Positions 6,943 through 50,759 of a stretch of DNA of 64,000 nt are shown in pieces. The notes below the pieces were generated by a model, which was not told the origin of the DNA, did no database searches, and worked only from the letters and a program-made list of their open reading frames with translations. The first letter of the stretch is position 1, and every line of letters starts with the position of its first letter. This DNA is from Candidatus Krumholzibacteriota bacterium (GTDB lineage: Bacteria; Krumholzibacteriota; Krumholzibacteriia; Krumholzibacteriales; WJIX01), in the NCBI GenBank assembly GCA_034520215.1, contig JAXHNR010000002.1, positions 6,859-70,858 of the forward strand, in the 5' to 3' direction. The translations under genes and the position numbers were made by a program.

Positions 6943-7548
6943 CTATTGCTGCTGTTGTATTTTTCGCTGATCAAGATCTTTTTTAGCGACCTCCAAGACG
7001 CCGCGTTTTTTGATTAGCGTTCTGATTCTATCACTATCCGGAAAACGGATGGCATCATAAACGCACCACACTTTGCAGGATGTGCACCCCACCATGCACT
7101 GGAGCGGTCGAGCAACAACAGTTTTTTTACGGCCCCAGTCATAATCAAAAACATTTCGGCCGCAAGAGGTCACGCATATGCCGCAGCCTGTGCATTTATT
7201 CAAATCGACAATCGGCGCCCAATCAATCTCTTCTCTGGGTATGCCTTTCCAGTATGAGAACTTGTTGGTTAATTCATTGTTATTTTTCCGCTCGGTTTTT
7301 GAACAGTGCTTCTGCATAAATTGTGCAATATGTTCTTTGGCCCATATATGACCCTGGCATATAATTTTGTCATCCACAATCAAAGCCGGAGTGAGCAAGA
7401 TATTCTTTTCTTCTATTTTCAGAATTTCATTCATATGATGAATAATATCCAGCTTACATTCAAGGCCCAATTCGTGGATAATATCCTCCACATCAGTTTT
7501 AAGCTGCCTCTGCATGGCGCTGTCCCTACCGATAATTTTAATGTTCAT
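6943..7548 (-). CDS. Fusion of a Cys-less MTH895/thioredoxin_3-like domain with a 2x[4Fe-4S] ferredoxin domain
   Basis: The N-terminus parallels the two CPKC thioredoxins in the window, but GRDSAMQRQ replaces GTGCPKCKK. The C-terminus has CTGCGICVTSC and CTSCKVWC cluster motifs. ATGA overlap with the upstream RND gene. Confidence 0.7.
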   Translation of the reverse strand: MNIKIIGRDSAMQRQLKTDVEDIIHELGLECKLDIIHHMNEILKIEEKNILLTPALIVDDKIICQGHIWAKEHIAQFMQKHCSKTERKNNNELTNKFSYWKGIPREEIDWAPIVDLNKCTGCGICVTSCGRNVFDYDWGRKKTVVARPLQCMVGCTSCKVWCVYDAIRFPDSDRIRTLIKKRGVLEVAKKDLDQRKIQQQQ

Positions 7549-9065
7549 GAAGATTCTCCTTTCGATTTGAAGGTTTTCTCAAAAATAAAATACAGATTCG
7601 GCAGCAACAGAAGCGTCACGAACAGGGAAAAGAACAATCCGCCGATCACCGCGATGGCCATCGGCTTAAGCATGTCGCCGCCTTCACCCCAGTTGATCGC
7701 CAGCGGCATTAAGCCCAGCATAGTGGTTGCCTGAGTCATCAGAATGGGACGCACGCGCAGGGGCGCCGCTTCCAGAATCGCTTCCCGCAGCGCCAGGCCT
7801 TTCCGGCGGTATTCATTGATAAAGGAGATCAGCACCACGCCCTGGGTGGCGATACCGCCGGTCATGATGATCACGCCGATGAGTACGGTGGCACCGGCCG
7901 GAAAACCGGTCAGAAGTAACGCCGCAATCACGCCCACTAAAGCGAAGGGCACCCCCATTAAAATCAGCAGCGGCTGTTTAAAGGAATTGAATTGTATCGC
8001 CAGAATGACATAAGCGAAGAACAGAGCGAACAAGATTATTTTTATCATGACGTTCTGGCTTTCCTGCATCAGATAGACCTGGCCGCCAAACTCAAACGAA
8101 TAGCCTTCAGGCATAGGGATATCAGCCAGCGATTGATTGACTACCGCTGCCATTTCACCCACGCTGGCGCCTGCGGTCACGTCGCTGGACACCACAATCT
8201 GTTTCACCTGATCCTCACGGATAATCTCTACCGGCCCCAACCGCGGGATAACTTTTGCCACGGTGCGCAGCGGCACTTTCTCACCGTTTCTTCCATCGAT
8301 GAACAGATTCTCGATATCCTGCTTTGAAGTCATGCGATTTTCAGGCACCATCACCCGAATGTCGTAATACTCACCCTGGTCGCGATATTGGGAGGCCACC
8401 GCGCCGTCAATCAGGCTTTTTACTGAATTAGAGATTGTCTGCGTGGAAATGCCCAAATCTGCCAGTCGCAGACGATCCACGTGAATCTGATATTCAGGCT
8501 TGGTAATCTGTGTACCGACGCGGATATTGGTCAATCCGTCTATTTTATTCAAACGAGCTGCCACCTGCTGCGCCATTTCATTCAATCTGTTTAAATCGAA
8601 GCCTCGGACTTTGATCTCCACGTCCGATTCGCCCATTTTACGGATGCCTTTCATCTTTGCCTGTTTCACGACCAGTCTGGCGCCAGGAACGCATGATTTC
8701 ATCACCTGACGGTCTTGATGCGTTCGGCATGTATTGTTCGGTCGAAAAGGGCCGATTGGCTTTGGGAACCAGCTCGATGCCAATCTCGCCTTCATTGGCG
8801 ATTTCGTAGGTAATGAGCCCCCAAACTTTTCCGCCGGACAGCACAAAATACTTGTCCACATAGCGGGTCGTCTTGCACGACGCTCTCCAGCCGGGCCAGC
8901 AGGCTGTCGGTGCGGGCTACCGGAGGTGCCGGTCGGCAAAATCGCCTTTATCATGAGCCGTCCGTCATCCACTTTGGGCAGGAATTCGCTGCCGATCTTG
9001 CCGAAGAAAAAGACGGCGGCGATCAGTAGCGCGATAAAAACCGCTACGACAATCCAGCGGAACAT
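7545..9065 (-). pseudogene. RND (AcrB/CzcA-type) efflux pump, C-terminal segment, internally frameshifted
   Basis: Typical RND C-terminal TM bundle (GVPFALVGVIAALLLTGF..., LGLMPLAINWGEGG). Residues about 45-125 of this ORF are Pro/Arg-rich nonsense, while RND-like sequence (DKYFVLSGGKVWGLITYEIANEGEIGIELVPKANRPFS) sits in another frame at 8638-8859. Confidence 0.8.
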
Positions 9066-10646
9066 CAGAAGAACATCCAGAGCCCGGCGATAGATTGCGG
9101 TCGATGACCTCGAATGAAACGGTCGGCAAGGCTGTGATGTTTGCGGGGATGCCCCTTGGCGGTGACCAGGTAGTGGGTCAGCATGGGCGTGACGGTCAGC
9201 GCTACAACCAACGAAATGACCACGATCCCCGCGATGGTTAGAATCAATTCGCGAAACAACAATGATGTTAGACCCGGAATGAGTAGAAACGGCAGGAACA
9301 ACGCCAAAAAAGTCAGGGTGGACGCCAGCACAGCAAGTGCGACTTCGCTAGTAGCGTTGTCTGCTATTGTGTCACTGCTTCTTCCTTCTATCAGATGCAT
9401 CCGGGTGATATTTTCGATCACCACTATGGAGTTGTCCAGCACCACGCCCATGGCCACCACCAGTCCGCCCAGGGAAAATATGTTGATGGAAAAATTGCCC
9501 AGTTTCATCAGAAAAAAATTGAACAGAATCGTAACCGGCAGGGCAACGAGCATCACCAGCACCTGCCGCCAGTGCCCCAGGAAAAGAAAGATCACCAGAA
9601 TAACCAACAGCACGGCGACAATGGCAGAATCTCTGACGCCGGCGATAGCGCCTTTAATGTAATCTGCCTGGTTTTCCACAGTGTTAAAATGAATGTCGGG
9701 CGGTATGGTTTCTTTCAGTTTTTTGGTCAACTGGTTTACCGCTTCCGCCACTTCAACCGTGTTCGCGTCAGCTTGCTTGAGAATGTTTAATTTAATGGCA
9801 GGCTTACTGTTAAACCGGGTAATCACGCGCTCGTCTTCGTGGCTGTCTTCCACAGCTGCCAGATCTTTTAAACGCACCATCGAATGATTGTTATTTAAAA
9901 TAACCACGTTGCGTATATCTTCCATGCTATGGAATTCTGCGGTGGTGCGCACAATATATTCCCGGCTCCCCTCGGTTACACGCCCCGCCAGCCGCTCAAT
10001 ATTTTCTTCCCGCAACCGATTGATCACCTGGTTCAACGTCAGGTTGTAGGCAGCCAGCCGTTCGGGATCGAGATGGACACGGATTTCCCGCTCCAGCCCG
10101 CCGACAATTTCGGTGCCGGCCACGCCTTTCACTGCCAGAAACTGATCCTGCAGCACATTCTCGACCCAGGTGCGCAGTTTCACTATATCCCTACCCTCGG
10201 ACTGAATGATAAGCTGCACCACCGGCAATTGCGACGGATCGGCTTTGAACATGATCGGCGGGTCCACGTCGGGCGGCAGTTTGCGGCCCGCCAGCCCCAT
10301 TTTCGCCACAACATCCTGATACGCCACATCCACATCCGTGCCGTATTCAAAATTGATCAGCAGAGTATACATACCCTCAATGCTGGACGACTCCAGGTAA
10401 TCGAGATCATCCACGGTGCTCATGAGCGCGCTCGACAGCGATCGGCTGATGTTGTCGTTGATTTCCTCCGGGGTCGCGCCGCGCCAGTAGACATAGACCT
10501 TGATCATGGGGTAGGTGATGTCCGGCAGAAAGTCTGTGGGCATGCTGGGAATAGCCATAGATGCCCGAGGACGATCGCCGTTGCCATCAAGCACGAGTGG
10601 TGGCTACCGGGCGCTTAATGCTGATAGATGTAAGTTTCATTTTCAT
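9065..10646 (-). pseudogene. RND efflux pump, N-terminal segment, multiply frameshifted
   Basis: The canonical start MKMKLTSISIKRPVATT (10646 downwards) stops after 17 codons. TM1 (LMATAIVLG) and the following PTDFLPDITYPMIKV lie in two other frames. A further frame break at about 9065 joins it to the 7545-9065 segment. Confidence 0.8.
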
Positions 10647-16540: not shown

Positions 16541-16651
16541 CCTCTTGATAGATGAGGGGAACATATTAGGGGGGCGCCGGCCTTTATACCGCTATCTAAC
16601 AACAGGTTACAGCCATTTCAAGATATGGTGTATTTCAGGCAGAAAAATACC

Positions 16652-16680
16652 TTGACATCATCAAGCTTGTTGGCTATTTT
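16652..16680 (+). promoter_or_regulatory. Sigma70-like promoter candidate (TTGACA-17-TATTTT) overlapping palindrome CTTGACATCATCAAG
   Basis: Read directly from the sequence, about 30 bp upstream of the arsR2 start at 16712. Function not tested. Confidence 0.35.
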
Positions 16681-16711
16681 GCCAATTAACAAATTAGATA
16701 AGGTTATAACA

Positions 16712-17032
16712 ATGCTCATGGACAAAAAAACGAAACAGAAATACGAAGCTCGAGCACAGATCATCAAAGCCATGGCACATCCGACCAGGCTGTTCATCGT
16801 CGATGAACTGGATAAGGGTGAACGATGTGTCTGTGAGCTGCGTGACATGATCGGCGCTGATATCTCAACCGTCTCAAAACACCTTTCCGTATTGAAACAG
16901 GCAGGAATTGTCGAGGGTGAAAAACGCGGACTTCAGGTGTGGTACAGTCTCAAAATCCGATGCATTCTGAACTTTTTCGGATGCGTTGAGGATGTGTTGA
17001 AATCAAACGCGCAATCTGTTAAAACGTCGTAG
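16712..17032 (+). CDS. arsR: ArsR/SmtB family metalloregulator (CVC motif), second type
   Basis: MAHPTRLFIVDEL..GERCVCELRDMIGADISTVSKHLSVLKQAGI. The ATG at 16712 fits family length better than the ORF-track start at 16625. Confidence 0.9.
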   Translation: MLMDKKTKQKYEARAQIIKAMAHPTRLFIVDELDKGERCVCELRDMIGADISTVSKHLSVLKQAGIVEGEKRGLQVWYSLKIRCILNFFGCVEDVLKSNAQSVKTS

Positions 17033-17116: not shown

Positions 17117-18418
17117 TTGAAATTGAACTGGAAATCTGAATGGAAGCCGCTGGCCTGGATAGTCGCGGTCTTCCTTATTTTCTTTTATCTGCCTATCGAC
17201 AGTGTTCGCCTGCGCGGAGCAGTTATTGAAGCCCTGGCACTGACTAAATGGTACGCGCAGGAGCACGTTCTCCTCTGTCTTGTGCCGGCCTTTTTCATCG
17301 CCGGCGCGATAGCTGTTTTTGTCAGTCAGGCTTCGGTAATGAAGTATCTCGGGGCGAAGGCGCATAAGGTGCTGTCGTATGGCGTGGCATCGGTCTCGGG
17401 AACAATACTCGCCGTCTGTTCATGTACAGTTCTTCCGCTATTTGCGGGAATCTATCGTATGGGCGCCGGTCTGGGACCAGCCACCGCCTTTCTATATTCA
17501 GGCCCGGCAATCAATGTCCTGGCCATAGTCCTTACGGCGCGAGTTCTGGGACGCGGACTTGGCATTGCCAGAGCGGTCGGCGCTATAGTCTTTAGTATTG
17601 TCATCGGGCTTCTGATGCATCTGATCTTCCGCAAAGAGGAAACCGAAAAAGTAAATGCCCAGATGGCTGCGCCGGAGCCGGAAGAAAGCCGGCCCCTCTG
17701 GCAGAACGGTCTCTACTTCGCCGCCATGGTTGCGATCTTAGTGTTCGCCAATTGGGGAAAGCCCGATGAAGCTTCGGGGTTCTGGTCGATGATTTACTCA
17801 TACAAGTGGGTGATTACAAGCGTTGCGGCGGCCGGGCTTGGCGCTATGCTCATTTTCTGGTTCAAACTATCGAAAGTGAAGGTCATCCTTACGGGTGTAG
17901 CCGCTGCTTCGGTGGCGCTGCTTTTCCCGCATGAGCCGCTTCTCGCATTCTCGGTCGTGGTAATTGGACTTTCGCTGATAATCAGCAGGCGCGACGATGA
18001 ATCCGGGGAATGGTTCTCACAGACATGGGGATTTGCCAAACAGATTCTGCCGCTTCTGTTCGGGGGAGTACTTATCGCCGGGCTGTTACTGGGCCGTCCG
18101 GGCGAAGAAGGCCTGATACCATCGCAGTGGATAAGCAATCTGGTGGGCGGAAACTCAATCGCGTCAAATCTCTTCGCGTCGGTGGTGGGGGCGTTCATGT
18201 ACTTCGCCACTCTCACCGAAGTGCCGATTCTTCAGGGTCTGATAGGTAACGGCATGGGGAAAGGACCGGCTCTGGCGTTGCTGCTTGCCGGACCGGCTCT
18301 GTCTCTGCCCAATATGCTGGTCATCCGATCGGTGATGGGAACAAAGAAGACAATCGTTTTTGTGTCGCTGGTAGTCATTATTGCTACCATCAGCGGACTG
18401 ATTTACGGAGCGATATGA
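17117..18418 (+). CDS. ArsP-like permease (COG0701/DUF318 family; organoarsenical or arsenite efflux candidate)
   Basis: Multi-TM protein with VCSCTVLPLFAGIYRMGAGLGPATAFLYSGPAINV and a second repeat half. The arsR-permease-thioredoxin arrangement is typical of this family. Confidence 0.8.
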   Translation: MKLNWKSEWKPLAWIVAVFLIFFYLPIDSVRLRGAVIEALALTKWYAQEHVLLCLVPAFFIAGAIAVFVSQASVMKYLGAKAHKVLSYGVASVSGTILAVCSCTVLPLFAGIYRMGAGLGPATAFLYSGPAINVLAIVLTARVLGRGLGIARAVGAIVFSIVIGLLMHLIFRKEETEKVNAQMAAPEPEESRPLWQNGLYFAAMVAILVFANWGKPDEASGFWSMIYSYKWVITSVAAAGLGAMLIFWFKLSKVKVILTGVAAASVALLFPHEPLLAFSVVVIGLSLIISRRDDESGEWFSQTWGFAKQILPLLFGGVLIAGLLLGRPGEEGLIPSQWISNLVGGNSIASNLFASVVGAFMYFATLTEVPILQGLIGNGMGKGPALALLLAGPALSLPNMLVIRSVMGTKKTIVFVSLVVIIATISGLIYGAI

Positions 18419-18625: not shown

Positions 18626-18859
18626 ATGAAGAAAATTGAGATTCTGGGGACCGGGTGCCCCAAATGCAAAAAGCTCGCTGAACAGGTGCAGATAGCCGCC
18701 AACGAGCTGAATCTGGACTGCCAGATCGGGAAGGTGGAGGACATTCAGAAAATTATGGGCTATGGGATAATGATGACGCCCGCACTGGTTGTCGATGGTA
18801 AAGTGAAAGTAACCGGCAAGGTGCCTTCAGTTGATGAACTGAAAAAGCTCATCGCTTAG
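18626..18859 (+). CDS. MTH895/TM0996-type small thioredoxin
   Basis: MKKIEILGTGCPKCKKLAEQ...MMTPALVVDGKVKVTGKVP. Confidence 0.85.
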   Translation: MKKIEILGTGCPKCKKLAEQVQIAANELNLDCQIGKVEDIQKIMGYGIMMTPALVVDGKVKVTGKVPSVDELKKLIA

Positions 18860-18888
18860 AAAACAGGTCATAGGCAGGAGATTTGATA

Positions 18889-19271
18889 ATGGAGATAGAA
18901 CAAAACGGGTGTTGCGGCGGTTCCTCGCGATTGGTGTTCGCCTGCTCCGGCGCGTCCGATGTCGGCGCCGCGGCCGATCAGGCCGCACGGCACTTTTCAC
19001 CAATGAACCAGCGTCCATGGGGTGCCTGACGGCCGTCGCCAACGGACTTGACTTCGCGATGGATTCCATAAAAATAGCGGAAAGGGTTCTCGTTATCGAC
19101 GGCTGTTCGGAAAACTGTGCCAGACTGGCTACAATGAAAGCCGGAGCATCATCCTTCGACCATATCCTGCTTTCAGACCTCGGCACGGGAAAGGGCAATA
19201 CCAAAGTCGACCGGGAGTATATTGCCCGTGCTTATGAACGGACGGAAATGATAGTAGCTGAAGGAAAATGA
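18889..19271 (+). pseudogene. DGC-domain (putative zinc-binding, ArsE-like) protein with one frameshift
   Basis: The N-terminus MEIEQNGCCGGSSRLVFACSGASDVGAAADQAARH is in frame 1 and stops at about 19029. The remainder (ASMGCLTAVANG...VLVIDGCSENCARL...) is in the frame of ORF 18909-19271. The switch lies in or near the T-run cacttttcacc (about 18990-19000). Confidence 0.65.
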
Positions 19272-19366: not shown

Positions 19367-20065
19367 ATGGATTCTTACATTGTTGCTCTTGGTTCAGCCG
19401 TCTGGCTGGGAATCCTTACTTCCATATCGCCCTGCCCTATGGCCACCAACATCGCCGCGATCAGCTTTATCGGCCGACGGGTTGAAAATCCCCGAAAAGT
19501 CCTCGCCTCCGGGTTGCTTTATACGCTGGGCCGGATGTTGACATATCTTGTGCTCGGTATCCTGATTGTAGCCAGCATACTGTCTATTCCGGAGCTGGCG
19601 ATGTTCCTTCAGAAGAACATGAACAAGTTCCTGGGGCCAATTCTCATTGTCGTCGGTATGTTTCTCCTGGAGATGATTTCATTTGACTTGATGCGCAGTG
19701 ATATCGGATCTCGTATGCAGGGACGGGCGGAACGGTTCGGCATCTGGGGAGCGGCTCTTCTGGGTCTGCTCTTTGCTCTGTCATTTTGTCCGGTTTCGGC
19801 CGCTTTATTCTTCGGCAGTCTCATTCCGCTGGCTGTCGAGCATAATTCCGCGGTGGTAATACCCTCCGTCTATGGCGCCGGGACTGCCCTGCCGGTAATT
19901 GTATTCGCTTTCGTAATTGCCATTAGCGCCCGGATGGTTGGTGTGATGTTCAATAAGCTGAAAACTTTCGAAAAGTGGGCACGGCGAGTCACGGGCGTAG
20001 TGTTCATACTGTTAGGTATCCACTACACTCTAGCCTATATCTTTGGAATAAACATGTTCAACTAA
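19367..20065 (+). CDS. DsbD_2-type membrane protein, ArsG-like transporter candidate
   Basis: Paired motifs SISPCPMATNIAAISF and LSFCPVSAALFFG. Paralog of 14009-14713. Confidence 0.7.
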   Translation: MDSYIVALGSAVWLGILTSISPCPMATNIAAISFIGRRVENPRKVLASGLLYTLGRMLTYLVLGILIVASILSIPELAMFLQKNMNKFLGPILIVVGMFLLEMISFDLMRSDIGSRMQGRAERFGIWGAALLGLLFALSFCPVSAALFFGSLIPLAVEHNSAVVIPSVYGAGTALPVIVFAFVIAISARMVGVMFNKLKTFEKWARRVTGVVFILLGIHYTLAYIFGINMFN

Positions 20066-20619: not shown

Positions 20620-20818
20620 TCCGGATCAGGCGACTGACCGGAACCGCATTCATTCTTTCCGGGCAACTGCAGGGTTGTTCATGTCCGGCTTCGGCGATCC
20701 GCCAGAGATGGCCGGGGAACTCGCGGAGCAAGGCGCATCAGAAGAAGAGCAGATGGAGTGCTATCGGAAGGTCCGTGACGAGATCAAAGCCTTTGTCGAA
20801 ACCCTGCTCAAGAACTGA
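20620..20818 (+). pseudogene. arsC: C-terminal remnant of an LMW-PTP-type arsenate reductase ArsC (frameshifted)
   Basis: FFPGNCRVVHV / GFGDPPEMAGELAEQGASEEEQMECYRKVRDEIKAFVETLLKN matches the C-terminus of the intact ArsC at 24486-24938 (VVHVGFEDPP...EEEALNSYRKVRDEIKEFIQTL). There is no N-terminal CX5R loop. Confidence 0.6.
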
Positions 20819-20898: not shown

Positions 20899-21201
20899 TT
20901 ATTCAACGAGTTCCACTGTGTAACTGCCTTTGTCCGGCAGTATGAATTCCAACTCACCTGAATTCGCCGTTAAATCTTTCTCTATAAAAAAGGTGATATC
21001 TTTTGCCCTGAACTCAGAGAAATCCCTTTTCTTTTCAGCGTAAATCAGATTTTCTGGTCTCACCATCCGACCGGACAGCTTTTTCTCAGCCCGTCATCAC
21101 CCGTAAACAACGTAGAAGTTTCCTATGGTGATGACGCCGCCTCTGGCCCGTATATATCCGAGAAGCTCTTTGCTCGCTTTAATTCTATTGCGTTTCTCCA
21201 T
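20899..21201 (-). CDS. Candidate small selenoprotein with tandem in-frame UGA-UGA (putative Sec-Sec in place of a CC motif)
   Basis: ATG at 21201 with GAGG upstream. A single frame runs to TAA at 20899, broken only by TGA TGA (plus-strand tcatca, 21094-21099). Both halves look protein-like: MEKRNRIKASKELLGYIRARGGVITIGNFYVVYG-UU-RAEKKLSGRMVRPENLIYAEKKRDFSEFRAKDITFFIEKDLTANSGELEFILPDKGSYTVELVE. Confidence 0.55.
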
Positions 21202-21295
21202 AATACACCCTCGGGAAAATACTGCTATTTCTATATATTTTCTTTCAGAATACAGCGCCAAAACAGATCATGCAACGTCTTTTTTGTAAATTCTA

Positions 21296-21430
21296 TCAGC
21301 GGGCCATTCGTTTTCCGTCCGCTGAAGATAGAAACCGGCAGCGCTGCCACAGAACGCCGGTCAGACGGGCACTCAGAGCTGCTCTGATGCCCTTGTGATC
21401 ATCGCTGGTGACTGCTACAACTCCCTGAGG
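21296..21430 (-). mobile_element. IS256-family (Mutator-type) transposase internal fragment
   Basis: VAVTSDDHKGIRAALSARLTGVLWQRCRF matches the conserved sDah.Gl..Ai...f....WQRC.vH block. There is no N- or C-terminal remainder. Confidence 0.6.
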
Positions 21431-21448
21431 ATAAAGACGATGGGCTAC

Positions 21449-21708
21449 AGAAAGCGCAGGTTTGAAGACAATCTCCTCTACAGAATCATCAGTGACCACT
21501 GGCAGAACTTAATTGATGCTTATGAGCACCTTTCCCAGCGTCTCTGCGCTGCTCTTGGATCTGCAGCAAGCGATGTGGTAAAAAGCTTCCTTGGGCTCAG
21601 GAAACCCCATGAACGGATTTGCCGGCAATCAAGTGTGAAAGCTGCGTGGCTGAGAAGCTTCTGTATTTCAGCTGCAAGACCCGTGGTCTGGTTTGTTCTT
21701 TTGAGTGA
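21449..21708 (+). mobile_element. IS91-family transposase N-terminal (zinc-binding domain) fragment, frameshifted
   Basis: YRIISDHWQNLIDAYE... followed, in another frame, by GFAGIKCESCVAEKLLYFSCKTRGLVCSFE*, i.e. the GFaR.rC..Cg.e.l..FSCK.R motif. Confidence 0.55.
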
Positions 21709-21719
21709 TCTTATGTCCT

Positions 21720-22592
21720 CTACCGAACGGACGGTATCAAGAGCACTGGCGCTGCGGCGCGCCTTGTCACTGCATGGCTGACGCTGCCGAGGAAGATTTC
21801 ACCTATAAAACCACGCCCCTGGCTGCCCATTACGGCCAGTGACACATTGTCTTCGCGGATACGCTCGAGGATTTCCTTCTTGGGCGAGCCGTAGGGAATC
21901 TTGATGTGTACATCCTTAGCGCCCGACTGTTCCAGGTCATCCTTTAGCCGATTCAGGCGCGCGGTGTCGGTTTCGTTGAATTCGGCCAGGCGCTCCTTCA
22001 GGTGTTTGTCAATCCGTCCTTTGTCCTGCACGTGCAGCAGCGTGATCCGCTTGGCGCCGCACTCCGCGATCCTCTTCACATAGGAGAAGGCGTGTTCGGA
22101 GTTGTCGGAGAAGTCCGTGAGAAACAGAACGTGCCGCAAGCTGTCGCGGGCCCATTCTTCGCACTCCTTTCTTCCCTCTTCTCCGGCCAGGTTGAGACGC
22201 AGGATCAGAACCGGTCGCGTGGCGCTGTGGATGACCGCGCTCGCCACACCTCCCAGCAGAATCTCCCCCGCCATCGTGTCGCCCGTTGATCCCACGACCA
22301 CAAGCGAACAGTCGTACTTGTCGGCCTGACGGTTGATCTCGATCTGAGGCAAGCCCAGCACCATCTTGGCCGTCACGTCGAACCCTTGATCCTCCAGAAT
22401 CTTCTTCTGCCGCTCGAAGGACGGCTTGGCGATTTCCATCATGCGATCCGCCAGCGATCCCACATCGCGGATGTTGAAGCAGTGTATCAACACAGCCTGG
22501 CGCGTTCCCAACGCCTTGAGGGTGCCCAGGGTGCAAATCACCCGCTCCGAAGCCTCCGATAAATCCGTCGTCACCAGCATTTTCTTAAACAT
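21720..22592 (-). CDS. Tandem universal stress protein (2x UspA domain)
   Basis: Two repeats ending in the G-x2-G-x9-G(S/T)-type motifs (VVVGSTGDTMAGEILLGGVASAV and LAVMGSQGRGFIGEIFLGSVSHAV). Confidence 0.85.
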   Translation of the reverse strand: MFKKMLVTTDLSEASERVICTLGTLKALGTRQAVLIHCFNIRDVGSLADRMMEIAKPSFERQKKILEDQGFDVTAKMVLGLPQIEINRQADKYDCSLVVVGSTGDTMAGEILLGGVASAVIHSATRPVLILRLNLAGEEGRKECEEWARDSLRHVLFLTDFSDNSEHAFSYVKRIAECGAKRITLLHVQDKGRIDKHLKERLAEFNETDTARLNRLKDDLEQSGAKDVHIKIPYGSPKKEILERIREDNVSLAVMGSQGRGFIGEIFLGSVSHAVTRRAAAPVLLIPSVR

Positions 22593-22616: not shown

Positions 22617-23840
22617 TTAGACCCGCGCCTTCTCAAACCAATGCTCCGTGCGGGTACAAATTCGAACCAGCCACAGCATCACCGGCACTTCAATCAATAC
22701 ACCCACCACCGTCGCCAGAGCCGCGCCGGAAGACAGCCCGAAGAGCATGGTAGCCGTGGCGATCGCCACCTCGAAGTGATTGGATGCGCCGATCATGGCG
22801 GCGGGCGCGGCATCGGCGTAGCGCAGTTTCAGCTTCCGAGCCAAACCGTAACCGATCCAGAAGATGAGCATGGTTTGGATGAACAGCGGAATGGCGATCC
22901 ACAGGATGGTCAACGGCTGACTCAGGATGATGTCCCCTTTGAAGCTGAACAGCAGGACAAGCGTCACCAGCAGGGCAATGATCGAAACCGGTGTGAGTAC
23001 GTGCAGAAACTTGTCCGTGAACCAGGCCTCTCCCCTGGTTTTGATAATCCACTTGCGCGAGAGGTAACCGCATACCAGTGGTAGCGCCACATAGATGCCT
23101 ATCGACAACAGCAACGCCTGCCAAGGAACCGGCAACTGCCCGATACCCAGCAGGAACCCGCCAAGCACACCGTAAAGGATCAGCATGGTAATAGAATTGA
23201 TCGCCACCATGACCAGGGTCAACCCGTCATTACCCCGCGCCAAATAGCTCCAGACCAGGACCATCGCCGTGCAGGGGGCTATTCCCAGCAGGATGCAGCC
23301 GGCGAAGTAACTTCGCCAGAGTGGGATCTGAAGCATCTTGACACCTTCGTTCAGGACCACCGTGCCGGCACCGTGCGTAGCCCCGACGGCCAGATCCAGG
23401 CCGAACGGGATCTTTACGAGATCGGTTGCCTCGGCTCCAATGAACCCGCGGAACAGAACCCCGAGAAAGAGCAATGCTATGCCGTACATGGTGAATGGCT
23501 TGATACACCAGTTCACAAACAGCGTCAGGAATACCGGTTTTCCGCTTTTGCCCGCCTTGATAACAGACGCGAAGTCGATTTTCACCATGATGGGGTACAT
23601 CATAAAGAAGAGACAGACCGCGATGGGGATCGATACGACCGGCGCACCCTTTACGATAATGGCCAAACCGTCCAAATAGGTCGCAACCCCCGGGGCGATC
23701 TTGCCCAGGAGGATTCCGCCCACAATGCACAGCACCACCCAAACGGTAAGGTATCGCTCGAATACATTCGTCATTTTCCGCTCGTCGGCGGGCTTCACCT
23801 CATTGCTCATGTTATATTCCTTTCTTGTGGTTTCCGTCAT
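22617..23840 (-). CDS. acr3: ACR3-family arsenite efflux transporter
   Basis: [21 protein letters not shown]... and 10 TM segments typical of ACR3. The true start may be the internal ATG at 23810 (MSNEV...). Confidence 0.9.
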
Positions 23841-24121
23841 GCGTAAGGGAATCCGGCAGTGTTTCGACCAACGCCGGAATCGCGCCCCTCACCCATCTGT
23901 AACAATCCAATTTTTCATTCTCGCTTTCAATCTGCTCTGCCGCGCGCGGCCAGATCGCCGCCCAAAAACGCTTATTCTGCACATTGTCCGTTGCTTTTTC
24001 CATTTTTCGTCTTCTCGTTGTGTTCTCTATTTAAAAGGTCGCCAGCAGATACAATCCCGCGCCGACCAGCAATACGCCGGCGATGCTCCTGATCGCCGTA
24101 TCCTTTCTTATTTCGTGTGGT

Positions 24122-24391
24122 TCACCCACAACAATTACTGGTCCCCGCTGTTCCGCCGGGGCAGCAACCCTCACCAGACCGGGCATCATTGTCCAAGATC
24201 CCCTTTGAGAATTCCCGCATGGCAGACATCGCGCCTTTTTCGACCATATGCCCGACGGCAATCGCCTCGCGAATCTCGTCTTCGCCAATGCCCAGCTCCT
24301 TCGCTTTTGCGACGTGATACGTCAGGCAAGGCTGACAGTGCGCTCCCACCGAGGTTCCAACCGCGATCAGTTCTTTCGTCTTCTCATCCAT
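24122..24391 (-). CDS. AhpD-like / carboxymuconolactone decarboxylase family protein (CQPC) with a Cys-rich tail
   Basis: ELIAVGTSVGAHCQPCLTYHVAKAKELG. The C-terminal tail is GCCPGGTAGTSNCCG. Confidence 0.75.
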   Translation of the reverse strand: MDEKTKELIAVGTSVGAHCQPCLTYHVAKAKELGIGEDEIREAIAVGHMVEKGAMSAMREFSKGILDNDARSGEGCCPGGTAGTSNCCG

Positions 24392-24485: not shown

Positions 24486-24938
24486 TTATATTCCTAATGA
24501 TCCGGGAAGCGTTTGAATAAATTCCTTTATCTCATCCCGTACTTTGCGATAGGAATTCAGCGCCTCTTCTTCATTCGCCGCATTCCTCGCCAGTGCCGGT
24601 GGATCCTCAAAGCCCACGTGCACAACCTTCGCCTTGCCTGTCAACCACATCGGACAGGTCTCATTGGCATGTCCACACATCGTAACAACATAATCAAACG
24701 GAACATCCTTTACCGCGTCAACGGTCTTGGACTTCTGCGCGCTTATATCCACACCTGCTTCGGCCATGACCCGGACAGCATTTGCGTTTAACCCATGCAT
24801 CTCTATCCCGGCCGAATAAACATCCATCACATCGTTCTTCAAATGACGTGCCCAGCCTTCTGCCATCTGGCTCCTGCAGGAATTTCCGGTGCACAGAAAG
24901 AGAACCTTTAATTTTTCTTTTTTTTCTGCATACGACAT
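24486..24938 (-). CDS. arsC: Arsenate reductase, thioredoxin-coupled LMW-PTP type
   Basis: KVLFLCTGNSCRSQMAEGW P-loop plus downstream Cys residues (VVTMCGHANETCP). Confidence 0.9.
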   Translation of the reverse strand: MSYAEKKEKLKVLFLCTGNSCRSQMAEGWARHLKNDVMDVYSAGIEMHGLNANAVRVMAEAGVDISAQKSKTVDAVKDVPFDYVVTMCGHANETCPMWLTGKAKVVHVGFEDPPALARNAANEEEALNSYRKVRDEIKEFIQTLPGSLGI

Positions 24939-25276
24939 AGCGTCTCCTTTTGGATACACATAATCTTATCCACACTTCTCATATCAGCCTGTACCTGTTC
25001 GTCATCGCCAAGAGAATCTGTTAACAGCTTGAGAATTTTCCTGACCAGAACATCAGGCCTGCCGGGCCAACGGTAATACATCCACCGCCCTTCCTTGCGA
25101 TCATCCAGAAGCCGAGCTTGACGCAGAATTGATAAATGCTTGGATACCGTGGATGGCGCCAGCCCCAGCATCTCGATGATCTGACACACGCAAAGCTCAC
25201 GCTCCTTCAAAACACACAGAATCCGCACCCGATTGTTGTCAGCCAGCGCCTTTATAACATTCATAAACTCAAACAT
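24908..25276 (-). CDS. arsR: ArsR/SmtB family metalloregulator (CVC motif)
   Basis: IKALADNNRVRILCVL..RELCVCQIIEMLGLAPSTVSKHLSILRQARL. Close in sequence to the ArsR at 15784-16134. Confidence 0.9.
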   Translation of the reverse strand: MFEFMNVIKALADNNRVRILCVLKERELCVCQIIEMLGLAPSTVSKHLSILRQARLLDDRKEGRWMYYRWPGRPDVLVRKILKLLTDSLGDDEQVQADMRSVDKIMCIQKETLCRMQKKKKN

Positions 25277-30060: not shown

Positions 30061-30924
30061 TTAAGCTATGTTTGCCAACTTGTCGTAATCTCCAAGGCTT
30101 TTATACTCCAAGTATGTATGGCAACGAATGCAATTATAAAACGTTCCAATGTATGTGAAAATATCTCTTTTTGCCTCCTTTCTGGTTTTATATTTCTTTG
30201 AATAAACAGATTCAACTTTCAACGATCGATAGAAACTTTCCATTACAGCGTTATCCCAGCAATTCCCTTTTCTGCTCATACTGCAGATCATACCATGTTT
30301 CTTGAGCTTATCCTGGTATTTATAACTGGCATACTGGCTACCCCTGTCCGAATGATGTAATAAGCCGGGGGCCGGACATCTGGCTCTTACAGCCATATCA
30401 AGAGCGTCTATCACAAGATCTTTCGTCATCCGTTTATCCATAGACCAGCCAACAATACGTCTTGAATATAGGTCCATTACAGTAGCCGGATATAGCCACC
30501 CTTCATCAGTCGCAACATACGTAAGATCAGACACCCAAACCATGTCCGGTAAAAGAACTTCAAAATTCCTGTCGAGAAGATTGGCGGCAATAGGATAATT
30601 ATGTTTTGAATCTGTTGTTGGTTTAAACTTACGTTTGCGCTTTGCTGCTATCTGCTCTTCCCTCATCAGTCTGGCTACACGTTTCCGGCTGCAGCTAAAG
30701 CCTCTATCAAGCAATTCTTCATGCACTCTCGGGCTGCCATAACTTATTTTTCTACCGGTATGAATTCTCCTAATCTCTTCCAATATTCTCCTTTTTCCCC
30801 GATATCTTTTACTTTCCGGCTGGCTCTGCCAATTGTAATAGCTCTTTCTTGATACACTTAGAACCTTGCTCATCACAGATACCGGATATTTATTCTCATT
30901 GTCTCTTATGAATTTGTATTTCAT
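30061..30924 (-). CDS. IS3-family transposase OrfB (rve/DDE integrase core)
   Basis: WVSDLTYV...HSDRGSQYAS...GNCWDNAVMESFYRSLKVE. The frame stays open upstream to the A8 run (plus strand 30953-30960), consistent with a -1 frameshift fusion. Confidence 0.9.
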   Translation of the reverse strand: MKYKFIRDNENKYPVSVMSKVLSVSRKSYYNWQSQPESKRYRGKRRILEEIRRIHTGRKISYGSPRVHEELLDRGFSCSRKRVARLMREEQIAAKRKRKFKPTTDSKHNYPIAANLLDRNFEVLLPDMVWVSDLTYVATDEGWLYPATVMDLYSRRIVGWSMDKRMTKDLVIDALDMAVRARCPAPGLLHHSDRGSQYASYKYQDKLKKHGMICSMSRKGNCWDNAVMESFYRSLKVESVYSKKYKTRKEAKRDIFTYIGTFYNCIRCHTYLEYKSLGDYDKLANIA

Positions 30925-41325: not shown

Positions 41326-42546
41326 TTATCCTGCCATCATGCTCGAGACCTTTTTTATTCCCGTTATCAGTCTTTCCAAATCATTGATGTTGTTATACAA
41401 CGCTACTGAAGCCCTCACAGTTCCTGTTATCCCATAATGGTTCATCAGCGGCTCCGCGCAGTGGGCGCCCGTTCTTACAGCCACGCCGAGGCCATCGAGA
41501 ATCATCCCCGCGTCGTAATGATGAATGCCGTCAAGGTTGAAGGAGATCGATCCGTGCTTTGAGGATCCTTCAGCGTAGATTACCACCCCTTCAAGGCTTT
41601 TCAGTTCATCTTCAAGGTATTTTAACAATTTATTCTCGTGCGCTTCTATTTCGCCCTGGCCGATATTATCTATATACTCTATCGCTTCCGCGAGCCCTAT
41701 AACCCCCGCAATATTCCCTGTGCCCGCTTCGAACTTCAGGGGCACGGCTTCGTACTCGGTTTTTTCGAATGAGACTGACTTTATCATTCCTCCTCCGGTG
41801 TTGAACGGGGGAAGTTCTTTCAGCAAATTCTCTTTTCCGTAGAGTACACCTGTTCCGGTGGGTCCGTATACCTTGTGCCCGGAAAAAACAAAAAAATCAC
41901 AATCCATTTCTCTCACATTTACCGGGATATGCTGAATGGACTGAGCTGCATCGACCAGTACCGGAATATCTTTCTTATGAGCCGCTTCTATAATCTTCTC
42001 TACCGGGTTGATTACACCCAGCACGTTGGAAACGTGCGTGACTGAGATCAGCTTCGTTTTCGGTTTAATCAGATTCTTTAATTTATCTATCCTCAGATTT
42101 CCGTTTTTTTCAAGAGGGATCACCCTGAGGACCGCTTTCTTCCTCCTGCATAAGCGCTGCCATGGAACGATGTTCGCGTGGTGCTCCATTCCCGTTACTA
42201 TTATCTCGTCATCTTCCCGGATGAACCTTTCTCCGAAAGAGTAAGCTATGAGATTAATCGATTCTGTGGCACCCGAGGTGAAAACTATCTCTAAGGCTTT
42301 TTCGGCGTTTAGGAATTTTCTTACACTTTCCCTTGCATCTTCGTAAAGACCGGTTGCTCTCCGGCTCAACAGGTGAGCTCCCCGGTGTGTGCTGCTGTAT
42401 TCTTCGCTATAGAATCTTATGATTCTATCCAGCACCCGCTTCGGTTTCTGGGTTGTAGCCGCGTTGTCGAGGTAGCAGATTTGTTTGCCGTTTTCTTCCC
42501 TGCTTAATATGGGAAAGTCTTCTCTTATATCATCAATATCGATCAT
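41326..42546 (-). CDS. sufS: Cysteine desulfurase, SufS/CsdA group II
   Basis: YLDNAATTQKP, SGHKVYGPTGTGVLYG (PLP Lys), RTGAHCAEPL (catalytic Cys). Confidence 0.9.
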   Translation of the reverse strand: MIDIDDIREDFPILSREENGKQICYLDNAATTQKPKRVLDRIIRFYSEEYSSTHRGAHLLSRRATGLYEDARESVRKFLNAEKALEIVFTSGATESINLIAYSFGERFIREDDEIIVTGMEHHANIVPWQRLCRRKKAVLRVIPLEKNGNLRIDKLKNLIKPKTKLISVTHVSNVLGVINPVEKIIEAAHKKDIPVLVDAAQSIQHIPVNVREMDCDFFVFSGHKVYGPTGTGVLYGKENLLKELPPFNTGGGMIKSVSFEKTEYEAVPLKFEAGTGNIAGVIGLAEAIEYIDNIGQGEIEAHENKLLKYLEDELKSLEGVVIYAEGSSKHGSISFNLDGIHHYDAGMILDGLGVAVRTGAHCAEPLMNHYGITGTVRASVALYNNINDLERLITGIKKVSSMMAG

Positions 42547-42553
42547 TAACCGT

Positions 42554-43561
42554 TCAGTCCTTGACTATCAAAATTAGTGAATACCACTTCCTGCTGTCCG
42601 TATAAATCCTCTTAATCCTAAGTCCCGCCCTTTCTATCATCATCACTACCTGCTCACGGGAAAACTTGTGCGAGTTCTCGGTGTGGATTCTTTCCCCCTT
42701 TCCTATGGGGATCCTTTTATTAAGGTGCGGGGTTCTTATTTCCATATCCTCCACCGCCTCCAGGTGCATCTCTATCCTAGAGTGCTGGTCGTTGAAAAAA
42801 GCCACATGCTGAAAAAGCTCCGGGTCGAAGTCCATGCCGGCCTTTTTGTTCACCACATTCAGTATATTTTTATTGAACTCGGCAGTAATCCCATCACGGT
42901 CGTTGTAGGCAAGCTCTAATATTTTTCTATCCTTTATCATGTCCACACCCAGAAGGAGGTTGTCGCCGCTGTTCATAACCTCCTGGAGATCAGTTAGATA
43001 TACTAGTGCCTGATCTCTGTCCAGATTCCCGATAGTGCTTCCGAAGAAACAGAAGAAACGGCCGGATGATTCAGGTACACGGTCGATCTTGCTTAAGAAA
43101 TTTGCCGCCAGGCCGTAAAACTCAATAAGGGGAAATCGCTCTGATATGATATCGGCGGATTTCTTAAGAGCTGAGTAACTTATATCCACAGGAACGTAAC
43201 GGATCGCCGCCCTCTTTGATTCCGGAATAGACCCTATAAGAATTGAGATCTTAGAGCAGTCTCCGCTTCCAATTTCAACTATATCCATCCCATCGAACGA
43301 TCCGCATATCTCAGGCGAGATCTCTCTTAAGATTTTCTTTTCCATATCGTAGAGGTAGTATTCCTCAAGGGCTGTTATTCTCTCGAACAGCCTCGAGCCC
43401 ACCTCATCATAGAAGAAAACGCTGGATATCTGTTTTCTCTCTCCCGTAAGCCCACTGATTATATCCTTAAGATTCTTCTCCCTGCTGTTTCCGTCAAGAA
43501 GGCTTCTTATCTTAATTCTGCTTCCGGCATATATTTTCTGCATAAACCTCCTGTCGCTCAA
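42554..43561 (-). CDS. egtD: Histidine N-alpha-methyltransferase (EgtD/EanA family, hercynine synthase)
   Basis: FFYDEVGSRLFERITALEEYY, VEIGSGDCSKISILI, YVPVDIS, FFGSTIGNL, AYNDRDGITAEFNKNIL, IHTENSHKF, which is the Methyltransf_33 signature set. Confidence 0.8.
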   Translation of the reverse strand: MSDRRFMQKIYAGSRIKIRSLLDGNSREKNLKDIISGLTGERKQISSVFFYDEVGSRLFERITALEEYYLYDMEKKILREISPEICGSFDGMDIVEIGSGDCSKISILIGSIPESKRAAIRYVPVDISYSALKKSADIISERFPLIEFYGLAANFLSKIDRVPESSGRFFCFFGSTIGNLDRDQALVYLTDLQEVMNSGDNLLLGVDMIKDRKILELAYNDRDGITAEFNKNILNVVNKKAGMDFDPELFQHVAFFNDQHSRIEMHLEAVEDMEIRTPHLNKRIPIGKGERIHTENSHKFSREQVVMMIERAGLRIKRIYTDSRKWYSLILIVKD

Positions 43562-43570
43562 ACTAAGATG

Positions 43571-44875
43571 CTACTCTGGAGTTCCCGTTTCGATCGGATT
43601 CTCAGGGTCACTGCTCCATTGATACCATCCGCCGTCGAAAACCGATATGTCCGGCCAGCCCATAAGCCAGGCGCTAAAGAAGGCCTCGCTCGCCCTCCAG
43701 CCGGTCCCGCAGTAGAAGGCATTATGTTTGTCGGGAGTAATTCCCGCTTCACTCCAGATCCTTTCGATCTCGTGGTACTCCCTCATAGTATGGTCGAGGT
43801 TTCTGTAATTCTCCATGTGGTATGCGTCTGACCCGCAGTTGCCGAAGATAGAACCCGGTATTCTACCCTTCTTCTCTATGTAATTGTAACCGCTTACCCG
43901 GCCTGTATACTCCGGCCAGCTGCGGACGCTTACCAGGTTTTTTCCTTCAGCCTCGAGAATCTCCCTCGCCCCTGCCATATCTGTAATCAACTCCGGGTTC
44001 TGAGGGATATTAACCCCGAATTTTTCAGCCTTCATTTTCGTATTCTCTTCTGTTTCCACCCCGTACCCGGCATCCAACCACGCCTGCATACCTCCGTTAA
44101 GCAGACGCACATCTTTTACACCCGCATATAGCATTATAAAAGCGGCTCGCATCGCCCCAAGGTGTCCCGCGCTGCTTCCCGGAAAGGGATCGTTATTGTC
44201 CGGGAATGAAAACCTCCCGTAAAGCACAACCGTTGTCTCTGATGTTATCCCCCTGGACAGAAGCGCCTTTTTTATCTCATCCGGTTTACGGCAGTTCCAG
44301 GTCTCCTGCGATTCGAGCGCATTCGTATCTATATCGACAGCTCCCGGTATATGCCCAGCTAAATAGTCTTCCCGATTTCGGTAATGAGCATGACAGAGTA
44401 CAAACCTGTTGTTTTCATATTCTTCGGCATCTCCGGTCTCAATCAACCGCTTAAGCCATGGGGCGGGAACCAGCCTGTTGTATCTTTCCAGTTGCTCCAT
44501 AGGCAGTGAGTCACTCATAACCCACTCGTCTGTAAACCCGTAGTAAGCCGCGACATCATCATACCCCGAATTAACAAACTGTTTGATTACTTTATCTGTT
44601 TGATCTCTGCTGTAGCCGTAAACAACGATCATATCTTCCGGCTTTATCCCCCGGGACCGGACTATCTCTATCCAGTCTATATATTCAGCCCATTTAGCAG
44701 GAAAAGATTTTGCGCCTTCTATATGACCGCCTCTTTTTTCACACTGCAATCTCCAGCCATTATAAGCCTCGGGAGGGCGAACATCAATTACCTTCAGATT
44801 AGAATGTCCAAATTTTTTGAGCAGCTCCCGGGTGGAAAGTTCCCGGTGGTATGTAGATTCTTTTTTGGCATACAT
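43571..44875 (-). CDS. eanB: Multi-rhodanese sulfurtransferase, EanB-like (anaerobic ergothioneine synthase candidate)
   Basis: Rhodanese modules. C-terminal active-site loop FYCGTGWRASEAF. Blocks CHAHYRNREDY, GSDAYHMENYRN and DGGWYQWSSDPENPIETG. Adjacent to the egtD-like gene, as in the EanA/EanB pair. Confidence 0.7.
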   Translation of the reverse strand: MYAKKESTYHRELSTRELLKKFGHSNLKVIDVRPPEAYNGWRLQCEKRGGHIEGAKSFPAKWAEYIDWIEIVRSRGIKPEDMIVVYGYSRDQTDKVIKQFVNSGYDDVAAYYGFTDEWVMSDSLPMEQLERYNRLVPAPWLKRLIETGDAEEYENNRFVLCHAHYRNREDYLAGHIPGAVDIDTNALESQETWNCRKPDEIKKALLSRGITSETTVVLYGRFSFPDNNDPFPGSSAGHLGAMRAAFIMLYAGVKDVRLLNGGMQAWLDAGYGVETEENTKMKAEKFGVNIPQNPELITDMAGAREILEAEGKNLVSVRSWPEYTGRVSGYNYIEKKGRIPGSIFGNCGSDAYHMENYRNLDHTMREYHEIERIWSEAGITPDKHNAFYCGTGWRASEAFFSAWLMGWPDISVFDGGWYQWSSDPENPIETGTPE

Positions 44876-49683: not shown

Positions 49684-50403
49684 TATTCAGTCCTTTCTCT
49701 GATCCGATAATTCCGGATCTAAAATGGTAAGCGTCAGATATATAAATACAGCTGTTTGCCATAACCCCGCGGGATGAATAGCGTTCGTTTGTTCGTCTGG
49801 TGGGGATGTCAGCTATGTGTTGTGAGGCTTTTTTCGAATTGTAATGCTTGACAGCTATTGATTCATAAATCAGCTCCTTTCCTGATTTTTTAACCAGAAA
49901 GATTTATTATTAATAATCAGATGCAATTATCGCATTCCCCGCGGCAGTATACAAGATAAAATTAAGGTTGTTACGGGAATGATCAGGAAAAATGAAATGG
50001 TCAAGGCTCCCATCACAGCCATGTCCCGGGAGAGCGTTTCTGGCTCCACCGCAAAAGGATGAATCGTTCCGTCCTTTGTGTAGCGCTTGAATCCCGCGGC
50101 ATCGCCTTTGACCAGCAGTTGAAGAATCATGTCCTTGACGGACGCGGACATGTTTTTGGGAGACGTCATGCCGTCGCCTCCAGGTACGGTCGCATCACAT
50201 TTTCGACCCGGCAGATCTTGGCGTGTCTGAGCAGCTCGCTATCCTAACGGAACATTATCCCGAAGTTACCGTCGATAGTCTAAAAACGATGTTCAAAGGG
50301 GTCAGTGATATAGCTCGTGAGGGCATACGTAATGAAGGACAGCAATATGAATCCTATGCCGCGATCACCCATCCCCGTATTATAGTCTTTGAGACGGATT
50401 AAC

Positions 50404-50759
50404 TGGAGGCGGCGGGAATCGAACCCGCGTCCGAGAATACCGCAACAGGGCTTCTACGTGTGTATCCCGTTGCTAAAGTTTCGCTTCCGAACTTTCCAAC
50501 AGGCATAAAGCCCGGAAACTAGATCCCTAAAGTTTCGCCTGCTTTCCGGGAACAGAGTCCACAGACTAGTCAGCAGTTATCGACGCCCAGCATTCATCCC
50601 TGATGACTCAGATGAAGTGAACGAGCTGCTTGTTTTTAAGCAGCCAATGCCAAATTGTCGTTGGCAATTGTGTTTTGCCACCTGTTTAACGAGGTACGCG
50701 ATGGCAACCTCGACACGCTTCCCCTGCCTCATCTATCCCCGTCGAATCCGTTCGCCCCC
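50404..50759 (-). ncRNA. ssrA: tmRNA (SsrA), tag peptide ANDNLALAA
   Basis: 5' GGGGGCGAACGGATTCGACGGGG... and 3' ...GGACGCGGGTTCGATTCCCGCCGCCTCCA tRNA-like ends. Tag reading frame GCC AAC GAC AAT TTG GCA TTG GCT GCT TAA (plus strand 50636-50665). Confidence 0.92.

Follow-up and report, generated by a model that had tools for sequence, protein, structure and literature searches.

We analysed a 64,000-nucleotide stretch of contig JAXHNR010000002.1 from a Candidatus Krumholzibacteriota bacterium (hereafter, the window), and in particular a small minus-strand gene at 20899-21201, whose frame is interrupted by two adjacent UGA codons. It is likely, from comparison of related genes, that both UGAs are decoded as selenocysteine (Sec) and that this gene encodes a selenoprotein with a Sec-Sec (UU) pair, from a divergent subfamily of the CC/Se family. 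A tandem-Sec protein of the CC/Se type had been proposed in the original prediction, which was made from the letters of the window, and this proposal is now supported by the conservation of the two UGAs, by homologs with Cys at the same positions and by a hairpin downstream. The predicted product is a cytoplasmic protein of about 100 residues with a vicinal Sec-Sec pair. Furthermore, the family is probably the first natural prokaryotic one with two adjacent Sec residues, both inserted via a single downstream selenocysteine insertion sequence (SECIS) hairpin. The elements of the gene are as follows (L numbers denote contigs that carry relatives).

20899-21201, minus strand: complete recoded gene, with the ATG at 21201-21199 and the terminal TAA at 20901-20899.
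21097-21099, minus strand: first in-frame UGA, codon 35; TGA in 7/7 UU genes, TGC (Cys) in L011 and L015.
21094-21096, minus strand: second in-frame UGA, codon 36; TGA in 7/7 UU genes, TGT (Cys) in L011 and L015.
21080-21093, minus strand: 14-nt spacer CGGGCUGAGAAAAA from the second UGA to the hairpin, translated as R-A-E-K-(K).
21062-21079, minus strand: candidate bacterial SECIS, GCUGUCC-GGUC-GGAUGGU, with the 5′ arm at 21073-21079, the GGUC loop at 21069-21072 and the 3′ arm at 21062-21068.
21202-21258, minus strand: conserved 5′ non-coding region, a putative promoter or 5′ untranslated region, which aligns with L001:5810-5865.

Direct reading of the minus strand from 21201 to 20899 gives 100 codons, arranged as 34 + U + U + 64, and TGA TGA is the only break. 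The predicted product is MEKRNRIKASKELLGYIRARGGVITIGNFYVVYG-U-U-RAEKKLSGRMVRPENLIYAEKKRDFSEFRAKDITFFIEKDLTANSGELEFILPDKGSYTVELVE (about 100 residues) and does not contain Cys outside the UU pair. The coordinates of the frame, its translation and the position of TGA TGA were exactly those given originally. In a mechanical listing of open reading frames (ORFs), the gene is cut into a 54-aa piece (21097-21261) and a 55-aa piece (20899-21066). The GAGG that had been pointed out 5′ of the ATG exists in the window but is not kept in the closest ortholog, L001. About 57 nt 5′ of the ATG are common to the window and this Krumholzibacteriaceae ortholog despite different flanking genes; a sigma-70 consensus was not seen in the region 21202-21258. 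From this alignment, the gene seems to travel as a small cassette along with its 5′ region.

The sole match in a first word-indexed protein search was a 55-aa “hypothetical protein” from a Candidatus Krumholzibacteriaceae metagenome-assembled genome (MAG), which fits the C-terminal half of the product. In the contigs of this MAG (L001), a 34-aa ORF in the same frame stops 30 nt 5′ of the 55-aa ORF. When the L001 gene is read through the stops (...GNFYVVYG-TGA-TGA-RAERKLSGRM...), its product shows 81% identity to the window protein. This first search and two scans of genome collections reached the closest lineage only. Further family members were obtained by an exhaustive HMMER search with the post-UGA part and then by profile searches; P0004 and P0005 from the HMMER search were repeat proteins and were discarded as noise. 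The same split architecture was found in contigs L008, L010, L019/L020, L017 and L018. The UU relatives, which have TGA TGA in the same columns, are located as follows.

L001:5866-6168
L008:7866-8168
L010:7887-8201
L019:9887-10201
L017:4350-4661
L018:4097-4408

The window gene and these six relatives make seven distinct UU genes from about five deep lineages, with 30-57% identity between clades. They were drawn from independent assemblies (NCBI MAGs, JGI, ENA and Logan), and such a recurrence of TGA TGA goes far beyond chance.

Because the gene lies in an island with damaged genes, we considered whether it is a pseudogene or a sequencing or assembly artefact. Genes nearby are frameshifted (18883-19271 and 7545-10594), and a fragment of a transposase borders the gene, as might be expected in a decaying island. 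However, six further genes, which were sequenced and assembled independently, have the same double stop, so that the TGAs are not assembly errors. Moreover, other stops or frameshifts were found in none of the copies. The ratio of nonsynonymous to synonymous substitution rates (dN/dS) between the window gene and L001 was 0.24 over the whole frame, with 0.27 in codons 1-34 and 0.23 in codons 37-100. Because the values are similar on either side of the stops, both halves appear to be under the same purifying selection in one frame. These comparisons indicate that purifying selection acts on the entire frame as a single gene, which is neither a pseudogene nor an assembly error. The chance that it is either is negligible, and this explanation is effectively refuted.

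Uninterrupted homologs (P0008-P0015, P0022, P0028 and P0029) are proteins of 101-104 aa and possess Cys-Cys in both UGA columns. Their motif is ...GGV[IL]S[IL]G[NDE][FY]Y[QV]I[KQ]G-C-C-[NR]A[VMEL]K[ML]PSGR[LM]V.... The alignment of the window protein with the six UU and at least nine CC homologs is colinear, without indels around the motif. Thus, the two columns hold UGA-UGA in seven genes and Cys-Cys in at least nine full-length relatives, which is the pattern of Cys or Sec that the tandem-Sec proposal had called for. In L011 and L015, the Cys-Cys codons are TGC TGT, which are single-base steps from TGA TGA. In addition, the Cys-form locus L015 is syntenic with the UU-form loci L017 and L018. 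The gene orders are as follows.

L015: ArsR - ArsP - FmdE - TauE - Thioredoxin_3 - CC gene
L017 and L018: ArsR - cation efflux - FmdE - rhodanese - TauE - (Thioredoxin_3 remnant) - UU gene - ArsC

A 33-aa ORF stands beside the UU gene in L017 and L018. We considered whether it was a truncated selenoprotein; this was ruled out, and the ORF is a Thioredoxin_3 remnant. The C-terminal 33 residues of Thioredoxin_3 are left at L017:4095-4196 and L018:3842-3943, and the gene is intact in L015 at 6991-7224. Judging from these remnants, the Thioredoxin_3 partner has been lost from L017 and L018, loci with the UU form.

In public data, all UU members are either annotated as two separate “hypothetical” mini-ORFs or given a false WW translation. 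The latter case is P0031, a 104-aa protein from an ENA contig (L010:7887-8201 lineage), in which TGA TGA is called Trp-Trp (...IKGWWNAVK...). This annotation raises an explanation in which the UGAs are read through but not as Sec: they might be reassigned (Trp in code 4 or Gly in code 25) or be read by a near-cognate tRNA (Trp or Cys). The automatic call ...GWWN... was made by code 4, and the genes neighbouring L010 do not use TGA as a stop (at this locus, with 31% GC, the stops are TAA 7, TAG 1 and TGA 0). Against this explanation, internal TGA codons number zero in about 18,000 neighbouring codons from six loci and in window ORFs of up to 1111 aa, and Trp is encoded by TGG at a normal frequency in neighbouring genes. 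In the window, L001, L008, L011, L015, L017, L018 and L019, there are neighbouring genes that end in TGA. The terminal stops of the seven UU genes themselves are TAA (two), TAG (two) and TGA (three: L001, L018 and L019). Thus, UGA is not reassigned in these genomes. Furthermore, the aligned residue in homologs is Cys, neither Trp nor Gly, and two near-cognate events in succession would be extremely inefficient. Read-through of the UGAs as an amino acid other than Sec is therefore highly improbable, and the WW of P0031 is evidently an annotation artefact caused by application of genetic code 4 to a short AT-rich contig.

If the UGAs are not read through at all, TGA TGA would be a tandem terminator, and the locus would be a split gene that encodes an N-terminal peptide of 31-34 residues and a 55-residue protein re-initiated at an AUG, the two assembling non-covalently. 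The downstream hairpin would then serve termination-reinitiation coupling. Several observations fit. An AUG (Met) is present 10 codons past the stops in 7/7 UU genes, and six Cys forms have Leu there (UUG in L015). Gene callers annotate precisely these two pieces. The hairpin persists in Cys forms and so is not strictly tied to Sec. However, the Met-to-Leu change probably occurred as one event in one clade. More importantly, the nine codons between the stops and the AUG evolve as translated codons. Their Ala residue is invariant through GCT, GCC and GCG (GCA in Cys forms), their K/R exchanges are conservative, indels and frame changes are absent and the peptide can be matched to the Cys forms at each residue. 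Because the Ala residue is fixed while its codons vary synonymously, this linker is translated in this frame. Codons that really act as stops would be expected to change to TAA or TAG over time, above all at 31-39% GC. The terminal stops of the seven UU genes do vary in this way, yet their internal stops are TGA in 14/14 cases. Finally, the CC pair would be absent from a split product; this pair is invariant, is conserved better than any other feature of the family and provides the only Cys/Sec of the window protein. We therefore regard the split gene as unlikely.

A hairpin just downstream suggests how the two UGAs could be decoded as Sec. RNAalifold gave a 7-bp stem with a GGUC tetraloop as the consensus structure of four lineages. 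The stem begins 14 nt past the second UGA and 17 nt past the first one; the first loop G is at +22 nt from the second UGA and +25 nt from the first. The spacer is 14 nt in all nine genes (seven UU genes, L011 and L015). According to the published rule, a bacterial SECIS has a 6-8-bp stem and a conserved loop G about 20 nt past the UGA (PMC4605307), and the candidate hairpin conforms to it in stem length, loop G and distance. In the four aligned sequences, 27/28 paired cells were complementary, as compared with 25-57% when the partners were slid. One-sided changes that keep pairing were observed at three pairs (G:C/G:U, C:G/U:G and G:U/A:U). The hairpin is the minimum free energy (MFE) fold of isolated 27-30-mers (-7.3 to -12.7 kcal/mol). 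The isolated 27-nt hairpin had z values of -1.7 to -4.2; for stretches of 70-111 nt, z was -0.5 to +0.6, which is unremarkable.

Codon usage also points to this hairpin. There are 15 invariant residue columns with degenerate codons, and in 13 of them 2-4 synonymous codons are used. Only Gly-44 (GGT in seven of seven) and Arg-45 (CGG in seven of seven) are frozen, and these two codons form the hairpin loop and 3′ arm. In the AT-rich lineages, the CGG share of Arg codons is only 0-7%.

A conserved stem-loop downstream had been expected, and one is present in all orthologs compared. It is not, however, either of the two hairpins that were originally drawn. The GGUC/GACC hairpin (21056-21072) is not kept in L008 and L010, where the GACC arm is not conserved, and the second hairpin (21069-21095) is seen only in the MFE fold of the window itself. 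The GGUC that had been taken as a 5′ arm corresponds to the apical loop of the conserved 7-bp hairpin.

We propose that the hairpin acts as a bacterial SECIS, which would recruit the SelB-GTP-Sec-tRNA(Sec) complex. With the stem at 17 nt from the first UGA and 14 nt from the second, the hairpin would be outside the ribosome while either UGA is in the A site, and because of this one element could serve both codons. A single SECIS would thus act through two successive SelB deliveries, and a flexible hinge of SelB would take up the 3-nt difference. The resulting UU pair could then form a diselenide between its two neighbouring Sec residues or act as a chelator of a soft metalloid. Sec insertion in bacteria is inefficient and, on the current view, requires a SECIS at a set spacing from every UGA. 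A conserved UGA-UGA with one hairpin would therefore be a natural test of the spacing tolerance of SelB and of SECIS reloading after a move of one codon. The family also contains built-in controls, namely the natural CC forms and the three genes that also end in UGA.

Several observations weigh against this proposal. The genes selA, selB, selC and selD were found neither in the window nor in about 250 kb of related loci (flanks of 10 kb or less), and a screen of the window and related loci for TGA-split genes did not reveal any other recognisable selenoprotein. Experiments showing that bacteria insert two Sec residues in succession through SelB were not found in the literature searched. The stem does not contain a double compensatory change, and a shuffle control was uninformative with four sequences. 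An Rfam scan at gathering and permissive thresholds did not give a match to a SECIS model but chance matches only; bacterial SECIS elements are hardly modelled in Rfam, and this null result is thus weak. Half of the lineages (L001, L008, L010/L019 and L011) are located outside arsenic islands, and the function discussed below is taken from context only. The hairpin and GGT-CGG are also present in both Cys-form genes with readable DNA (L011 and L015). Because it would be surprising for a useless remnant to survive so long, the hairpin may have another or an additional role.

The last of these points concerns the history of the family. Contrary to expectation, the hairpin has not been lost from the Cys forms: L011 keeps it intact, and that of L015 contains a single U-U mismatch, which arises from the Met-to-Leu change (AUG to UUG). 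The identity between Cys forms and UU forms is 32-62%. The stem-breaking Leu occurs in six Cys forms and the AUG is kept in all UU forms, which fits relaxed constraint after a Sec-to-Cys change. Remnant SECIS-like hairpins have been documented in Cys forms derived from selenoproteins, such as FdhA and HesB-like proteins (PMC1794560), which explains the persistence of the hairpin in part. From these alignments, the Cys-Cys forms with the hairpin are best read as derived from an ancestor of the UU type, with the hairpin as a remnant of its SECIS.

The persistence of the hairpin in Cys forms may also hint at a role beyond decoding, and this leads to another explanation, in which Sec decoding is mainly regulatory and the locus is a selenium-gated switch. 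At low selenium, the 34-residue peptide would be produced; with ample selenium, the full protein would be formed, and the double UGA would sharpen the response, since tandem UGAs would multiply the selenium dependence. However, constitutive CC forms occur in syntenic contexts (L015 versus L017), an indication that function resides in the full-length protein. We consider a switch of this kind very unlikely as the main role of the UGAs, and retain the reading in which they are decoded to make a UU protein.

We compared the family with known protein families and folds. The original prediction had named small HesB-like CC/Se motif (seleno)proteins. The CC/Se part was right in kind: the only NCBIfam match of every member is NF041239, “CC/Se motif family (seleno)protein”, and Pfam PF28096 (CC_Se_fam) is recorded for Cys forms in precomputed matches (P0008 unmarked, P0015 weak). 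The scores, however, are always under the 40-bit cutoff of NF041239: 16.1 bits for the window protein with UU read as CC, 22.7-25.8 bits for the Cys forms and 16-26 bits for all members. A local Pfam scan did not give a match for the window protein, P0008 or P0015; the copy used apparently does not contain PF28096. The best reading of these matches is that the UU and CC members constitute a separate, divergent CC/Se subfamily. A model of this subfamily would mend the split or mistranslated gene calls.

As a stand-in for the UU protein, the Cys form P0015 was modelled by AlphaFold2 with the family alignment (pLDDT, the predicted local distance difference test score, 86; pTM, the predicted template modelling score, 0.79). 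The order of the elements is beta(5-9), alpha(11-19), beta(23-33), turn G34-C35-C36, beta(37-45), four more strands and a short helix. Thus, in the model, the CC/UU pair is located at an exposed beta-hairpin tip. By reading, neither a signal peptide nor a membrane segment is present in the window protein. The top Foldseek matches to the model in the PDB were IscA, SufA, HesB proteins and AQ_1857, and 6/8 of the best matches were IscA, SufA or HesB, but these matches are weak (E 0.03-0.2, TM 0.35-0.44, root-mean-square deviation 6-7 Å). The hhalign comparison with Escherichia coli IscA gave a probability of 0.1%. A sequence profile search of the PDB did not return IscA; only a conotoxin with GCC and an ESCRT fragment appeared, as chance matches. 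The “HesB-like” label thus applies at most as a distant fold resemblance, which neither sequence comparison supports.

The neighbourhood of the UU gene gives some information about its function. The following genes and fragments surround it in the window (Pfam matches, except for the last line).

16625-17032: ArsR
17117-18418: ArsP_1 permease
18626-18859: Thioredoxin_3
19367-20065: DsbD_2
21296-21499: Mutator-family transposase fragment (Transposase_mut)
21720-22592: Usp
24122-24391: CMD protein
Further along the window: ACR3, ArsC and a second ArsR, identified by reading

The gene had been placed in an arsenic and thiol-redox island with insertion sequence (IS) debris. ArsR, ArsP_1, Thioredoxin_3, DGC, DsbD_2 and Usp, together with the Transposase_mut fragment, agree with this placement. 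Similar arsenic or thiol contexts (ArsR, ArsP, Thioredoxin_3, TauE, FmdE, rhodanese, ArsC, ACR3 and DsbD-type genes) are found in the window, L015, L017 and L018. Vicinal dithiols, for example in ArsD, are classic ligands of As(III), and selenols hold soft metalloids more tightly. On the basis of the island genes, the exposed pair and As(III) binding by vicinal dithiols, we favour a role in carrying or buffering arsenic or some other soft metal(loid), or in a thiol/selenol relay to the thioredoxin-type neighbours, rather than that of a general redox enzyme. The alternative function is a redox couple based on a vicinal diselenide. The label “redox protein” in the original prediction was inferred, and metalloid binding is at least as plausible. 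Any specific function should be taken as tentative, and we would sooner expect a given assignment to fail than to hold. If the tandem-Sec reading is correct, SelB would deliver Sec back to back at codons 3 nt apart, and the product could contain either a vicinal diselenide or a selenolate site that binds arsenic or other soft metal(loid)s in bidentate fashion. The Sec-Sec pair would yield a diselenide ring of eight members or a bidentate ligand of exceptional softness; this would be relevant to the handling of arsenic and mercury under anoxic conditions.

Several other features of the window were observed. The island, at about 8-28 kb, has 48-57% GC, as compared with 38-47% across most of the remaining window. 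The window also encodes T9SS-type sorting domains, which, like the Krumholzibacteriaceae ortholog, fit a source among uncultured bacteria of the FCB group. Short ORFs at 20675-20818 (plus strand) and 23812-24003 (minus strand) resemble C-terminal fragments of the low-molecular-weight protein tyrosine phosphatase (LMW-PTP) type of ArsC (...YRKVRDEIKAFVETL...), and an intact ArsC is present at 24486-24959. Together with the remnant of the Mutator transposase (21296-21499), these fragments indicate that the island has been rearranged in the surroundings of the UU gene. An intact ORF for an IS3-family transposase (integrase core) is located near the island at 30061-30924 (minus strand). A DGC-domain gene (PF08859) at 18883-19271 (plus strand) is apparently frameshifted, with the N-terminal part (CCGG...LVFACSGASDVG) in one frame at 18883-19029 and the rest in a different frame at 18909-19271. 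A resistance-nodulation-division (RND)-type efflux pump at 7545-10594 (minus strand) is split into two ORFs (506 and 509 aa) with a garbled stretch near the junction; either gene decay or assembly indel errors in the island could account for this split. At 6943-7548 (minus strand), a 201-aa protein is a fusion in which the N-terminal half resembles Thioredoxin_3 and the other half a 4Fe-4S ferredoxin. This protein has GRDSAMQ in place of the usual GTGCPKC and hence does not possess CxxC. At 41326-44875 (minus strand), a cysteine desulfurase-like gene, an EgtD/EanA-like methyltransferase gene and a gene for a 434-aa multi-rhodanese protein were identified by reading in a row, which resembles the anaerobic ergothioneine (EanA/EanB) pathway. 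Finally, a transfer-messenger RNA (tmRNA) gene is encoded at 50401-50759 (minus strand; Rfam RF00023, 186.7 bits), and its tag peptide is ANDNLALAA.

The closest known system is the NF041239/PF28096 family. Like the UU subfamily, it consists of small proteins (about 90-105 residues), and both Cys and Sec forms are known (PMC13188914). However, its known selenoprotein form is listed with one Sec, in CxxU (PMC13188914), whereas both residues of the pair are read as Sec in the subfamily described here. Proteins with more than one Sec include UxxU Prx-like or metal-binding proteins, UxxxxU TsoB, MbdU with two CU sites and FTR with two CxU; likewise, they often have metal or thiol-redox roles or metal(loid)-resistance contexts. 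In the listed multi-Sec families, at least two residues separate the Sec residues, or these are in separate domains (PMC13188914). A 2026 inventory of prokaryotic selenoproteins with 119 families and subfamilies contains adjacent UU in none of them (PMC13188914), and the literature searched gave no precedent for bacterial UGA-UGA, Sec-Sec or a natural vicinal diselenide. Because adjacent codons cannot each own a downstream SECIS, one element must serve both if the two UGAs specify Sec.

The CU-motif proteins of the SAO system (SaoL, SaoC and SaoB) and HgcA/HgcB, described by Haft and Gwadz, share with the UU proteins a vicinal chalcogen pair (Cys-Sec), a proposed binding of metals or organometallic compounds and truncation at the UGA in databases. 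They differ in that they have one Sec, belong to unrelated families and are found in other gene neighbourhoods. As for the RNA element, the E. coli SECIS is 11 nt from the UGA and has essential G23 and U24 in its apical loop (PMC8659212). Like the candidate hairpin, the SECIS of E. coli fdhF lies directly past the UGA, inside the coding sequence, with G and U in the loop. The apical loop of fdhF is GGUC, too. In contrast, the stem of the candidate hairpin begins at 14 or 17 nt rather than 11 nt, does not have an evident bulged U and is retained in Cys forms as well.

HesB/IscA carriers, including the HesB-like selenoprotein (TIGR01911, UxGP), have the order beta1-alpha1-beta2-turn-beta3 in common with the predicted model, with the reactive residue or residues near position 35. 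However, the C-terminal CxC ligands are theirs, and the window protein possesses neither CxC nor any other Cys. As a functional analogy only, the UU protein may be compared with the ArsD metallochaperone, which is likewise a small cytoplasmic protein of ars operons and binds As(III) through vicinal Cys pairs.

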